Positions 28,665-32,192 are shown, counted from the stretch's first letter. The stretch: DNA of 64,000 bases from Acidobacteriota bacterium (GCA_022072205.1 JAJVID010000004.1:10242-74241), one strand, 5' to 3'. Notes: generated by a model from the letters alone, not told the origin. Translations and numbers: made by a program.

Positions 28665-29204
28665 TCAAAACCGATCAGGATCGAGGTCGAAGTTTTCCAC
28701 CAGGTACTCGTAGTAGCGTCCATCGAGCAGGAAGGTCAGAAAGATTTCGTGGACGAGGTGGATGAGTTTGCGCGCGCCGTATTCATCGTCGCCATCAAGC
28801 ACGCGAAGGCTGAGCGCAACGTTGCCGCCACGGTTGGAAGCCGTGACCTGCGCCTTTCGGGAGTCAATCCGCCGGTGATCAGGCGCCTCCGCCGCGTGAC
28901 GCGCTTTGATGAATTCTTTCAACTCCCGATACATCTCGGCGGGAACGTTCGGCAGCGCCAGCGGGAAGCGCATGGCATTTCTGCGCGGGTCGAAGACGAA
29001 CTCGAAAACGCGGTCGCGATGCCACAGCAAGCGGAAAACGGCTTGTCCCTGGCGGGCGTTCTCTGCTGGACTGAACCCGCGGAACACGCCGCGATGAGCG
29101 TACACTTCGAGAATCGAGGCGACAGCGTCAATGCGCGCGCGTGTTCCTTTCACTCCGTGTTTCGCTTTCAATCTTGCGGCGGGCATCTCTTTTCGCGGCC
29201 TCAA
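28665..29204 (-). CDS. Hypothetical protein, last gene of the Tat-TPP/cytochrome operon
   Basis: 179 aa. The start overlaps the upstream TPP-enzyme stop (ATGA). No recognisable motif. Confidence 0.4.
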   Translation of the reverse strand: MRPRKEMPAARLKAKHGVKGTRARIDAVASILEVYAHRGVFRGFSPAENARQGQAVFRLLWHRDRVFEFVFDPRRNAMRFPLALPNVPAEMYRELKEFIKARHAAEAPDHRRIDSRKAQVTASNRGGNVALSLRVLDGDDEYGARKLIHLVHEIFLTFLLDGRYYEYLVENFDLDPDRF

Positions 29205-31144
29205 TGGGCGAAAGCTCCGACGCCCGGTTCAGGATTCAGCGCCACGCCGGGCGGGTAATGTCGGGCGGAGGTGAACTCCTTGAGCGCCTGAACATTGATG
29301 ACGGTCGAAAGGCTCTCTTTGGCCGCCGCCTGATAGCTGCGTTTGAGCGCCTCGCGCAACTCTTCGGGCGTCCGGACGTATTCGCCGCGCGCGCCCAGGC
29401 CTTCGGCCATCTTGTCGTAGCGCAGGTTTTCCTGGAAGAGGTACATGTGCATCGAACGCGCCGAAGTCGCCGCGCTCGGCCACATCCCCCACGAATTGTT
29501 GTTGTAGATCAGTGTAATCGTGGGAATCTTGAACTTGATGGCCGTGTCCAACTCGAACAGGCTGTAGGCCGCGCCGGCATCGCTGGTGATAGTCAGAACC
29601 GGAGCGCCTTTCCACGCGGCCTGCGGGCCTACGCCGCGCTGCACGGCTGCGCCTGCGCCGATCATCATCGCCATATCGGGGCCGATGGCGCCGTACTGGT
29701 ATGCGCAAACCACGCTCTGACCGGGACGAAAGGCGCGCAGCCAGCGGCCTGCGTACAACCCGCTCGTCCAACCGCCGGAACCGGTGACAGTCTGTTTCGG
29801 ATCAATGTCGCCTTTGTAGAGAAAGTCGTGGACTTCTTTCGCCAGCACAGCCGGGTGAACGGTGTTCGTGTCTTTGCTGTACTTCAATCCGAGTCCATAA
29901 ACATCCAGGTGTTGTTTCTCGAAGGCTTGTCGAGCCGTGGCCAGTTCGCTGACCCAGGCGTCGCGTTTCTTGCTCGGCAGTTTATTGGCGAGCGCTTCAA
30001 GGAACACTTTCTCGTCGCTGACGATGCCCAGATCGAGCGGCCAGTTGCGGCCCAGGTCTTCCTGAACCGGATGCGCGCGGATGCTCTTCACATCGGGATT
30101 GAAGCGGTACTCGCCGGGGCTGGGCATGCAGTATTGCCCGACGAAGACGACCAGATCGGCGCTCATCAATGCTTCGGGCGAAAGGCTGGCCGACAAACGA
30201 TGGTCATCGGGGAAATGGCCGCGCGTTGGCCCGGAGGTGACGACCGCGATGTCGTGCTTGTCGGTGATTTCTTTGAGCGCGTCCCAGGCCTTGCGTTGAA
30301 ACACGCCTTGCCCGGCGATCAGCGCTGGCCGTTCGGCTTTGACGATCATATCCACAGCCTTCTCGATTTCCTTTGGCGAAGGATGAGCGCGCGATTCGCT
30401 GCGGTATTTGGCTTTGCTGTGATAATCGGTCAGCTTCGTTGGCTCGGTAAAACGCGCACGGGCCGTTTCCGCCGGAAAGTCCAGATGCACCGGCGCCGGG
30501 ATGCCGGATTTCAACATCCGGAACGCATACGCGCCGTATTCGTAGACGCGGTTCGGCGCGATGATGCGTTTGCCGTATTTCTTCATGCCTTCGGTGGTCG
30601 GCTGTTGATAGCAAATCTGAATGAACTGCTCGCGGTCTTCGCCGGCGAGTTGCATATTGCTCGCCAGCGCCAGCAGTGGCGTGCGCGCCGCATTGGCCGC
30701 CGCGATGTTCATAATCATATGCGTGAAGCCGGGGCCTTCGGTGCCTGAAGTCGCGGTCACTTCGCCGGTCACACGCGAAAAACCATCAGCCGCCGCGCAC
30801 ATCGCGCCTTCGGTTCGCCCGCCGTAAGCAGGCACGCCCGCTGCGGCGATGGCGTTGATGACCGTGTAATTGCCAGGACAGCAAAACAGCGCGGCCAGCT
30901 CTTCTTCTTTGCAAAGCCTGGCGAAGACTTCCGCGCCCGTCATTCCGTTGCCTTCAAAAGAGCCGGGCCTGGGGGCTTCGGCCATCGAGTCGGGAATTTC
31001 TTTCGGAATGCGAATGGAGGGGATTTCGGGCATGGCGTTGGCCAGCGCGTTGCCGGTCGTTCCGACGGCGGCGACAACGGCGGCGGAGTTCGCCAGAAAC
31101 CTGCGCCGCGTTGTGTCTACGTGAGCGTTGTTCCGTTTTTTCAT
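29201..31144 (-). CDS. Tat-signal-bearing thiamine-diphosphate-dependent enzyme (predicted periplasmic)
   Basis: N-terminal twin-arginine signal (MKKRNNAHVDTTRRRFLANSAAVVAAVGTTGNALANA) followed by the three TPP-enzyme domains (GPGFTHMIMNIAAANAARTPLLALASN; C-terminal ITSDAGAAYSLFELDTAIKFKIPTITLIYNNNSWG). Confidence 0.85.
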   Translation of the reverse strand: MKKRNNAHVDTTRRRFLANSAAVVAAVGTTGNALANAMPEIPSIRIPKEIPDSMAEAPRPGSFEGNGMTGAEVFARLCKEEELAALFCCPGNYTVINAIAAAGVPAYGGRTEGAMCAAADGFSRVTGEVTATSGTEGPGFTHMIMNIAAANAARTPLLALASNMQLAGEDREQFIQICYQQPTTEGMKKYGKRIIAPNRVYEYGAYAFRMLKSGIPAPVHLDFPAETARARFTEPTKLTDYHSKAKYRSESRAHPSPKEIEKAVDMIVKAERPALIAGQGVFQRKAWDALKEITDKHDIAVVTSGPTRGHFPDDHRLSASLSPEALMSADLVVFVGQYCMPSPGEYRFNPDVKSIRAHPVQEDLGRNWPLDLGIVSDEKVFLEALANKLPSKKRDAWVSELATARQAFEKQHLDVYGLGLKYSKDTNTVHPAVLAKEVHDFLYKGDIDPKQTVTGSGGWTSGLYAGRWLRAFRPGQSVVCAYQYGAIGPDMAMMIGAGAAVQRGVGPQAAWKGAPVLTITSDAGAAYSLFELDTAIKFKIPTITLIYNNNSWGMWPSAATSARSMHMYLFQENLRYDKMAEGLGARGEYVRTPEELREALKRSYQAAAKESLSTVINVQALKEFTSARHYPPGVALNPEPGVGAFAH

Positions 31145-31662
31145 AAGCCATCCTTTCCTTGTTTTTCTTCCTGCAATTTAGGGCGTTGGGCTTCCGGCCA
31201 CAGGCTGCGAATAAAGTTGACCAGATGCCACAGGTCTTCCGATTTTCGAATCTGGTTTTTGTATGGCGGCATGCTGATGCCCGCGCCGTCGCGGATGCTG
31301 CGAAAGATTTCGCCTTCGGTCACGCCGCTCTTCCAAAGCTTCGGGTCGGTCAAATCGGTCGCATCGGCGATCACGTCCACTTGCGCTTTGCCGTCGTGGC
31401 CGTGACAGCCGGTGCAATCGTTGGTGTAGAGAACGCGACCGCGCGCAATCGAAGATTTGGTGTACGGCACAGGACTTTTGAGCAGCTTGGCCTCGTCGCG
31501 GGTGAGCGGTTTGTCCTGGGCTTCCTGGCCTCGTGAAAGTTGCGCGCCGATGACGCAGGCGAGCAGACACAAAACAATAGATCGAACGATTTGTCGTGTC
31601 ACAACAGGTTCTCCGAGTTGAGAGAGAGATATTACTCGTTGGGCAGAGAAGCTAACGGCCAC
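31141..31662 (-). CDS. Membrane-anchored monoheme class I cytochrome c
   Basis: N-terminal TM (IVRSIVLCLLACVIGAQL), CTGCHGHDG heme site and a distal Met region (GISMPPY). The stop overlaps the Tat-TPP start (ATGA). Confidence 0.8.
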   Translation of the reverse strand: MAVSFSAQRVISLSQLGEPVVTRQIVRSIVLCLLACVIGAQLSRGQEAQDKPLTRDEAKLLKSPVPYTKSSIARGRVLYTNDCTGCHGHDGKAQVDVIADATDLTDPKLWKSGVTEGEIFRSIRDGAGISMPPYKNQIRKSEDLWHLVNFIRSLWPEAQRPKLQEEKQGKDGL

Positions 31663-32192
31663 GATACGACCCGGAACACTGGAAATTGCGCCGACACCTG
31701 CTCGAATTCAGAAAGCGGCGCATCCTTGCCGATGGGAAAATGCTGTCGCGCGCCAGGCGCTCGCTTCAAGTAAGCTTTCAGCACGGGGGCGCGCTGGTCC
31801 ACGGCGACTTCTTCAAGGTGTACCTCCTCGCGGCGTCCGTGAACTAGAGTGACATTGCCACCCGCCGCCTTCATATTTTGCACCCAGGCCGACTCCGTCC
31901 CGAGCATAGACACAAGGTAGCGCTCGCCTTCGATGGTAACCATGACGAGCGGCAGACTGATCCTGCGCCCGGATCGCCGGCCCTGCGCCTCCAGAGTGAC
32001 CAGATAGTTCGGTGCAATCCCGAGCGCGTGGACTGCGGCCCAGAGCCGGTTGAGTATGGATGCCAGCCAATTGGGACGTCCACCGCGATATAGCCATTTC
32101 CTCAGATTCATCAGAGGTAGAAAACTGAATGGTCCTTCCGTCGTCTGCTGCAGCGACTGGTTCGGCATCATGAACTCTAAATCGAAACACAA
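31632..32192 (-). CDS. Nitroreductase-family deazaflavin-dependent oxidoreductase (DUF385) homologue
   Basis: NYLVTLEAQGRRSGRRISLPLVM...GERYLVSMLGTESAWVQN matches the DUF385/F420H2-dependent reductase family. The true start is probably internal, because the first codons lie inside MITE-like repeat B. Confidence 0.65.
   Translation of the reverse strand: MCFDLEFMMPNQSLQQTTEGPFSFLPLMNLRKWLYRGGRPNWLASILNRLWAAVHALGIAPNYLVTLEAQGRRSGRRISLPLVMVTIEGERYLVSMLGTESAWVQNMKAAGGNVTLVHGRREEVHLEEVAVDQRAPVLKAYLKRAPGARQHFPIGKDAPLSEFEQVSAQFPVFRVVSWPLASLPNE

Follow-up and report, generated by a model that had tools for sequence, protein, structure and literature searches.

Gene content of the locus

The window analysed here is a stretch of 64,000 nt from Acidobacteriota bacterium GCA_022072205.1 (JAJVID010000004.1:10242-74241), and the region studied within it, positions 28665-32192, holds four head-to-tail open reading frames (ORFs) on the minus strand (Table 1). 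In reading order they encode a DUF385-like protein, a small cytochrome c, a 647-aa thiamine diphosphate (ThDP) enzyme with a signal for twin-arginine translocation (Tat), and an orphan protein that we call hyp179. ThDP enzymes are textbook cytoplasmic catalysts, and periplasmic respiratory dehydrogenases so far use molybdopterin, pyrroloquinoline quinone (PQQ), flavin or haem. A preliminary description of the region had read the four genes as one translationally coupled operon for a periplasmic ThDP-dependent dehydrogenase that passes electrons to cytochrome c. The four same-strand ORFs are present, and the start of the ThDP gene does overlap the stop of the cytochrome c gene (ATG and TGA sharing ATGA), but the other two overlaps of that description depend on the start codon chosen. 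The DUF385 and cytochrome c genes overlap only with the longest-ORF start GTG 31662, and hyp179 overlaps the 3' end of the ThDP gene only with the longest-ORF start TTG 29204. Homologue alignment instead points to GTG 31602 (VTRQIVRS..., with GGAG before it) as the probable start of the cytochrome, leaving a spacer of ~29 nt after the DUF385 stop, and to ATG 29186, 14 nt past the ThDP stop, as the probable start of hyp179.

Table 1 Features of the window, with the number of related loci (of 80) in which each gene lies near the ThDP gene by tblastn with the window protein
Feature	Position	Strand	Basis or remark	Loci
DUF374 gene	26080..26670		7-nt gap before second ThDP paralogue	0/80
Second ThDP paralogue, no signal peptide, cytoplasmic	26678..28408	+	PRK05858/HACL-like, 403 and 287 bits, below cut-offs	0/80; sole matches are the ThDP gene itself
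hyp179, orphan, 173 aa from probable start	28665..29186 (longest ORF 28665-29204)	-	No Pfam or NCBIfam family	69/80
Tat-signal ThDP enzyme, 647 aa, 'family A'	29201..31144	-	Pfam TPP_enzyme_N/M/C	
Twin-arginine signal peptide, residues 1-37, TRRRFL...ALANA/M	31034..31144	-	Sequence and homologue alignment	
Small class-I monohaem cytochrome c, Sec signal	31141..31602 (longest ORF 31141-31662)	-	PF13442 and PF00034	70/80
DUF385/FDOR-like gene	31632..32192	-	Pfam F420H2_quin_red/DUF385 (PF04075), marginal; directly upstream of cytochrome c	0/80
Inverted repeat	32207..32284		Between carboxylesterase stop and DUF385 start	
Carboxylesterase gene				0/80
Copper monooxygenase with c-type haem domain, 522 aa	33896..35464	-	CAECH; PHM/DBH-like	

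A conserved module of three genes

With one genome scanned per GTDB species, 379 species proved to have relatives of the ThDP gene, and the closest 80 loci were analysed. They span the Acidobacteriota (Blastocatellia, Bryobacterales, Terriglobia), Planctomycetota, Hydrogenedentota, metagenome-assembled genomes (MAGs) labelled as Nitrospirales, and Gammaproteobacteria, and the carriers include the cultured strains Pseudohalioglobus lutimaris HF004 (Gammaproteobacteria) and Bryobacterales F-183. The four-gene synteny of the preliminary description does not recur in these genomes: a cytochrome c gene lies near the ThDP gene in 70 of the 80 loci and hyp179 in 69, but DUF385 in none. The conserved unit is three genes (cytochrome c, Tat-ThDP enzyme and hyp179), not four, and apart from the two partners no gene is consistently linked. 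Cytochrome stop and ThDP start are separated by a median of 12 nt, and in 62 of 63 loci by no more than 100 nt. Both the order cyt-TPP-hyp and the order hyp-cyt-TPP are seen, and the retention of the same three genes despite shuffling argues for selection on their co-occurrence. Most loci that lack a partner either lie on truncated contigs or are second paralogues whose genome has another, complete locus.

It is highly improbable that all four genes act as one unit, with the DUF385 (deazaflavin/FDOR-like) reductase as a functional partner of cytochrome and ThDP enzyme. The DUF385 gene does sit upstream on the same strand, and the ~29 nt that separate it from the start of the cytochrome gene contain no terminator-like site. 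However, the idea is largely refuted by synteny, given that the gene is missing even from the closest MAG (L001, 92% identity); in addition, its family match is marginal (PF04075, 23.1 bits versus a cut-off of 22; TIGR00026, 33.1 versus 46.35), and it has no signal peptide, which points to another compartment. In the close relatives L002, L003, L005 and L006 a copper monooxygenase/cytochrome gene stands directly upstream of cytochrome c instead, and because DUF385 and the carboxylesterase are missing between these two genes there, the pair looks like a lineage-specific insertion. DUF385 may be co-transcribed with the module in this genome, but it is not part of the conserved module.

In one member with 61% identity (L088:763-8659) the run cytochrome c-ThDP-hyp179 is inserted in a proteobacterial-type ubiE/SCP2/ubiB...hisI/hisE/tatA cluster, so that it adjoins the Tat machinery gene tatA.

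A conserved Tat signal on the ThDP enzyme

The ThDP enzyme begins with MKKRNNAHVDTTRRRFLANSAAVVAAVGTTGNALANA, followed by MPEIPSIRIP, with the putative cleavage site after ALANA. Its elements are T-T-R-R-R-F-L-A, then NSAAVVAAVGTTG, then ALANA before M, in agreement with a (S/T)-R-R-x-F-L-K motif, a moderately hydrophobic h-region and an AxA-type cleavage site. In a 12-sequence alignment, in which the mature enzyme has a mean identity of 84%, the RR pair is invariant while the other positions of the first ~40 residues vary freely. Across the related loci with an anchorable mature N-terminus, RR occurs in a Tat-type context in 72 of 73, and in the loci analysed it lies 25-36 residues before the conserved mature start 'IPSIRIPKE', followed by an Ala/Gly-rich stretch and an AxA-like end. 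N-termini with RR are also found in representatives at 61%, 50% and 38% identity, and all of the distant representatives P0241, P0242 and P0247 have them. Hence, as judged from these alignments, the Tat signal of the 647-aa enzyme is genuine, canonical and conserved, as the preliminary description had called it unmistakable, and the enzyme would be exported to the periplasm.

The opposite case, that the RR segment is not a working export signal, that the enzyme stays cytoplasmic or tethered to the inner side of the membrane and that the cytochrome linkage is incidental, is extremely improbable. An in-frame Met after the RR pair does exist in the window (M38, the only one) and could serve as a start downstream of the motif, but it is not conserved in homologues, so that a start there is unlikely, and the ATGA coupling fixes the upstream start. 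Moreover, RR, the Ala/Gly-rich h-region and the AxA-type end are kept in those 72 loci though the rest of the segment is free to vary, the partner is an exported c-type cytochrome, and NCBI names some members 'twin-arginine translocation signal domain-containing protein'.

In P0247 (38% identity, L087:1-260) the RR motif, GISRRDFF, lies in another frame just before the called start; this probably reflects an assembly frameshift that left the database protein miscalled at its N-terminus.

Small cytochromes c encoded next to two families of ThDP enzymes

The cytochrome has a single CTGCH motif and matches PF13442 (Cytochrome_CBB3, 42 bits) and PF00034 (Cytochrom_C, 38.5 bits). An alignment of 67 homologues shows conservation of CxxCH (as CTGCH) and of an MPP[YF] Met ligand, in a mature domain of ~110 residues. 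It thus carries the marks of a class I c-type cytochrome, with a single CxxCH near the mature N-terminus, a distal Met and an export signal. The preliminary description had placed the protein in the membrane. Its sole hydrophobic segment is the N-terminal Sec-type signal, and it probably fits a soluble periplasmic class-I type better than a membrane-anchored one. A lipoprotein or other membrane anchor was considered and rejected: the LLAC of the window protein is not conserved, and no Cys lipobox is kept in the 67 homologues. A weak match to TIGR03872 (cytochrome cL; E 2.5e-7) lies far below the cut-off.

A second RR-bearing ThDP enzyme was found just upstream of the module in one of the loci (L063:3262-5169). 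It is PRK08327-like and only 22% identical to the window enzyme and its clade (family A, below). This family B is abundant in Acidobacteriota and occurs in more than 588 metagenomic loci, of which 80 were sampled (among loci L089-L172). RRxFLK is present in 68 of 72 complete N-termini, and a small (109-243 aa) CxxCH ORF starts directly downstream on the same strand, at -1 to 160 nt, in 59 of the 71 loci that have downstream sequence, compared with a background of at most 0.03 per equivalent stretch. The family B cytochrome is 21-23% identical to that of family A, and hyp179 is not found in the 80 sampled loci. Hence, each of two Tat-ThDP lineages that are unrelated to one another has gained a small, dedicated cytochrome c of its own. 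This replication in an unrelated family is the strongest argument that the cytochrome is the redox partner of the enzyme.

Two observations on individual family B loci may be added. In L089 a sulfatase gene follows the cytochrome after a 2-nt gap, and in L091 and L092 the cytochrome is missing and ccmE/F/H maturation genes lie ~1.5 kb off.

Family placement and active site of the ThDP enzyme

The three Pfam domains TPP_enzyme_N/M/C are all matched above cut-off (67.7, 74.7 and 62.5 bits), giving the usual PYR-middle-PP architecture. The catalytic Glu is E112 (GGRTEG), which aligns with the Glu of R-H-E in Escherichia coli PoxB, IlvI and Oxc and is invariant in the family. The ThDP-Mg2+ motif GDG-X(24-27)-NN is present with the right spacing as S521-D522-A-G...N548-N549; D522 and the NN pair are invariant in the family, and Ser takes the place of the first Gly. 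No NCBIfam model reaches its cut-off (best 168 bits versus 587): the pyruvate oxidase models score 112 versus 742 and 97 versus 638, acolac_lg 159 versus 538, glyoxylate carboligase 138 versus 791, and the oxalyl-CoA decarboxylase/2-hydroxyacyl-CoA lyase models 119 versus 557, 112 versus 739 and 115 versus 600. By membership, the predicted enzyme belongs only to the broad ThDP decarboxylase-like superfamily.

Within that superfamily it forms, on sequence scores, a deep and discrete clade of its own, which we call family A. When 1.84 billion cluster representatives were searched, those of full length gave 844, 653 and 416 bits, followed by a drop to ~188 bits (~30% identity), where ordinary 550-aa ThDP enzymes begin. 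Specific to family A are FCCPGNY where GxPGG is usual, an insert of 10 residues ahead of the ThDP motif, a conserved N-terminal extension (IPSIRIPKE...) and an invariant C-terminal tail ending in His (...YPPG..NPEPGxGxxAH-COOH).

The preliminary description had assigned the enzyme to the acetolactate-synthase/pyruvate-oxidase type, which the comparison with solved structures does not bear out. The best PDB relatives, at ~90-120 bits, are oxalyl-CoA decarboxylases (OXC), 2-hydroxyacyl-CoA lyases (HACL), BbmA, formolase and benzaldehyde lyase (BAL), with identities to OXC, HACL and BAL of about 25-30%, and of about 25% to solved OXC and HACL members, whereas pyruvate oxidases and PoxB reach 48-61 bits. 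We aligned family A with the E. coli flavoenzymes PoxB, IlvI and Gcl, with E. coli Oxc and with the neighbouring ThDP paralogue. The GMxGxxG segment present in PoxB, IlvI and Gcl is removed by an 8-9-residue deletion common to family A, Oxc and the HACL-like paralogue. Given that this GMxGxxG/MHG loop lies against the flavin in structures of the acetohydroxyacid synthase (AHAS) type, the one alignment, read against that structural background, suggests that the enzyme is probably not a flavoprotein. An assignment of substrate from active-site residues was attempted and gave no call, as just generic positions could be aligned (N92/Y93 after PG; F174/Q176 as the 'FQ' motif).

These data bear on the possibility that the enzyme is a classical flavin-dependent ThDP oxidoreductase of the PoxB or pyruvate oxidase kind that has moved to the periplasm, with electrons passing from ThDP to flavin adenine dinucleotide (FAD) and then to cytochrome c. 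PoxB offers a chemical precedent, flavoproteins are typical Tat cargo, the enzyme has the nucleotide-binding domain TPP_enzyme_M, and a Gly-rich AGQG turn is kept where relatives bind ADP or the ADP part of FAD. However, the flavin-contact segment is missing through the very deletion that Oxc and the HACL-like paralogue have, the middle domain alone scores best against HACL and OXC (54-49 bits, versus 23 for pyruvate oxidase), and PoxB gives just 48 bits overall. We regard such a flavoenzyme as quite unlikely.

hyp179, the most faithfully linked partner

The preliminary description had listed the fourth gene as a hypothetical protein and overlooked that it is the most faithfully linked partner of the enzyme. 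It adjoins the ThDP gene even in the representative at 61% identity, where hyp179 itself is 30% identical, and in that at 38% identity, where the relation has an hhalign probability of 99.4. The family has at least 232 members, labelled 'hypothetical proteins'. It gave no match in Pfam or NCBIfam, nor a sequence match in the PDB by profile search, and it has no signal peptide. An AlphaFold2 model is confident (predicted local distance difference test score, pLDDT, 88) and has the order helix, four strands, helix, two strands, two helices; a Foldseek search of the model against the PDB gave no match at E<0.001, the best being the C-terminal domain of T4 MotA (E 0.05).

The most distant homologues retain only two motifs, YAxRGxFRxF and (E/S)HRRI, and the family has no conserved Cys, which favours a protein-binding role over a redox one. 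Metal or haem binding through H56, H104, H143 and H146 was considered and rejected: in homologues 30-33% identical, the WH pair is lost in L087, and of H143/H146 only H146 is kept in L088 and neither in L087. We favour a protein-binding accessory factor, which may act as an export or maturation chaperone or be a subunit that rides out with the enzyme. The protein resembles the Tat proofreading chaperones TorD/DmsD and NapD in being small, signal-less, encoded by its Tat substrate and strictly co-inherited with it, but differs from them in sequence and fold; neither gives any support for a TorD/DmsD/NapD-type chaperone or for an AHAS small subunit. In the favoured role, hyp179 would represent a novel type of accessory factor serving a Tat substrate.

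Proposed function

From the gene and protein sequences together, we lean towards a periplasmic ThDP-dependent dehydrogenase that would reduce a dedicated cytochrome c. The core of the preliminary proposal is thus retained, carried by the Tat signal, the linkage to cytochrome c and its recurrence in family B, but without its DUF385 reductase, its acetolactate-synthase/pyruvate-oxidase type and its membrane cytochrome. In the proposed scheme, the ThDP enzyme would fold, bind ThDP-Mg2+ and dimerise in the cytoplasm, with hyp179 assisting or proofreading; dimerisation would have to precede export because ThDP sites lie at dimer interfaces. The folded oligomer would be exported via Tat and its signal peptide cut after ALANA. 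In the periplasm, decarboxylation of a small 2-oxo acid, or reaction with an aldehyde, would give the ThDP-bound carbanion/enamine, and two one-electron oxidations of the enamine would reduce the co-encoded, Sec-exported, soluble monohaem cytochrome c. As the flavin-contact loop is absent, electrons would pass from ThDP to haem directly or via protein side chains and not via FAD. The acyl-ThDP would then be hydrolysed to the carboxylate, and cytochrome c would hand the electrons to the respiratory chain or a terminal oxidase. hyp179 would either remain cytoplasmic and be dedicated to maturation or export proofreading, or leave with the enzyme as a signal-less subunit.

Several points weigh against this proposal. 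We know of no precedent for direct electron transfer from ThDP to haem. The nearest characterised relatives (OXC, HACL and BAL) are non-redox lyases and decarboxylases, and neither the sequence nor the alignment of the enzyme shows an evident site for flavin, Fe-S or another redox cofactor. An AlphaFold2 model of the enzyme from the 12-sequence alignment has a pLDDT of 52 and is unusable for judging access of the cytochrome to the active site. The 80 loci are the closest of 379 and not an unbiased sample; ~10% of them, mostly second paralogues, have no adjoining cytochrome and hyp179, and one of these (L066) retains hyp179 and lacks only the cytochrome.

An alternative view is that this is a periplasmic ThDP enzyme without redox function (a decarboxylase, an acyloin or 2-hydroxy-carbonyl lyase, or a carboligase) and that the cytochrome serves a neighbouring step such as a PQQ or other dehydrogenase. 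Its closest characterised relatives, including BbmA and formolase, are all non-redox, the FAD loop is absent and no other redox cofactor motif is seen, and PQQ dehydrogenases, which use c-type cytochromes, recur nearby, lying within 6 kb in 13 of the 80 loci. However, the other 67 loci have no PQQ or other dehydrogenase within that distance and mostly still have the tightly coupled cytochrome, the same pairing arose in an unrelated ThDP family, and junctions of the translational-coupling type suggest stoichiometric partners. We consider the non-redox alternative somewhat unlikely.

Several known systems invite comparison with the proposed cytochrome-reducing ThDP dehydrogenase. With the OXC/HACL/BAL/BbmA branch, family A shares the three-domain architecture, the catalytic Glu, the ThDP-Mg motif, the missing FAD-contact loop and the best PDB scores, but at ~25-30% identity it differs in its Tat signal, its N- and C-terminal extensions, FCCPGNY and the 10-residue insert, and in being partnered by a dedicated cytochrome c and hyp179; CoA thioesters, moreover, are not expected in the periplasm. 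The most likely functional likeness is to PoxB (pyruvate dehydrogenase (quinone), formerly EC 1.2.2.2, 'pyruvate dehydrogenase (cytochrome)') and Lactobacillus pyruvate oxidase, members of the same superfamily that oxidise the ThDP-enamine and send electrons to the respiratory chain. PoxB, however, is cytoplasmic or peripheral to the membrane, uses FAD and then ubiquinone and has a lipid-binding C-terminus, whereas the module has predicted Tat export, a deleted FAD loop and a soluble cytochrome c as proposed acceptor. Pyruvate:ferredoxin oxidoreductase is a precedent for flavin-free one-electron oxidation of hydroxyethyl-ThDP by a nearby metal centre, although it has another domain organisation and [4Fe-4S] clusters and is cytoplasmic and oxygen-sensitive, and family A has no Cys cluster motifs.

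The operon logic is that of the SorAB sulfite dehydrogenase, the NicA2-CycN nicotine dehydrogenase and methanol dehydrogenase with cytochrome cL, Tat-exported periplasmic dehydrogenases whose dedicated c-type cytochrome acceptor is encoded adjacently. In each the enzyme is exported folded and loaded with its cofactor, a small Sec-exported cytochrome c is encoded next door and electrons go to aerobic respiration, but the cofactor there is molybdopterin, flavin or PQQ and here it is ThDP. We know of no ThDP enzyme in such a role, and a full-text literature search whose coverage left out most subscription journals turned up no ThDP enzyme that is periplasmic or exported by Tat and coupled to cytochrome c. 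Within that coverage the preliminary description was right that this is not a well-described system, and the module appears to be both undescribed and widespread.

More tentatively, and as a possibility that we rate below the reduction of cytochrome c as such, these would be the first ThDP enzymes known from the periplasm and would make up a new class among respiratory dehydrogenases, with flavin-free one-electron transfer from the enamine to a dedicated cytochrome c, with hyp179 needed for assembly or export, and with at least two unrelated lineages widespread in Acidobacteriota and Planctomycetota. If this holds, a conserved clade of Tat-exported enzymes linked to cytochrome c would bring ThDP into the cofactor chemistry of periplasmic respiratory dehydrogenases as a new element, and if flavin is truly absent, electrons would reach haem by a new route, from a ThDP radical or enamine. 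Through its substrate the system might bring to light an extracytoplasmic carbon oxidation that has so far gone unrecognised, with glyoxylate, oxalate-type or keto-sugar acids and aldehydes from PQQ dehydrogenases as candidates. Both families sit in abundant and biochemically obscure phyla of soil (and water), and as the module is small, with three genes, and present in cultured strains, the hypothesis is directly testable.

Genomic context and substrate

The most informative context for a periplasmic oxidation pathway is a same-strand run of six genes with overlapping junctions in a Pseudomonadales MAG (L075:148-8404), which encodes an SGL/lactonase-like protein, a PQQ alcohol dehydrogenase, a PQQ and cytochrome c fusion, a cytochrome c, the Tat-ThDP enzyme and hyp179. 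Homologues of the copper monooxygenase of the window lie near the module in 9-10 of the 80 loci; in the closest relatives they immediately precede the cytochrome gene. As weak hints, the gene contexts fit an aldehyde or a 2-oxo (sugar) acid made in the periplasm as the substrate, without identifying which.

Some single loci have further genes of note. P. lutimaris has a sugar-1,4-lactone oxidase (ALO) gene near the module. In the window, the 522-aa copper protein joins an N-terminal c-type haem domain to a C-terminal copper type II ascorbate-dependent monooxygenase. The closest MAG has, in its upstream flank, a 2-oxoacid:ferredoxin oxidoreductase (alpha/gamma, beta and ferredoxin), and downstream, convergent with the module, a Kelch/galactose-oxidase-like protein with a weak match to the glyoxal-oxidase N-terminal domain (flanking genes at 989-5292 and 8497-10308).

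Neighbouring features of the window

The preliminary description had also pointed to a cytoplasmic ThDP paralogue and a DUF374 gene next door. Both are present as described, but they are unrelated to the module, and the paralogue was rejected as a partner because it is syntenic in none of the 80 loci. Its PYR domain is followed by an insertion of ~33 residues, which none of E. coli PoxB, IlvI, Gcl and Oxc has.

Scans of the locus for promoters and terminators were uninformative, with two promoter-like sites versus 1.5 expected and one terminator-like site versus 4.7 expected. A thiamine pyrophosphate riboswitch or other RNA element was considered and rejected, as Rfam gave just a meaningless sub-threshold match to a miRNA precursor on a hairpin. 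Between the carboxylesterase and DUF385 genes lies an inverted repeat with 28-nt arms, 93% complementary, and a 22-nt loop. It is made of CACAGAG(R)N units and is unique in the window (four unit matches versus zero expected), and in Rfam it gives no more than that meaningless miRNA-precursor match. It may be a terminator-like hairpin, or else be left over from the insertion that introduced DUF385 and the esterase.

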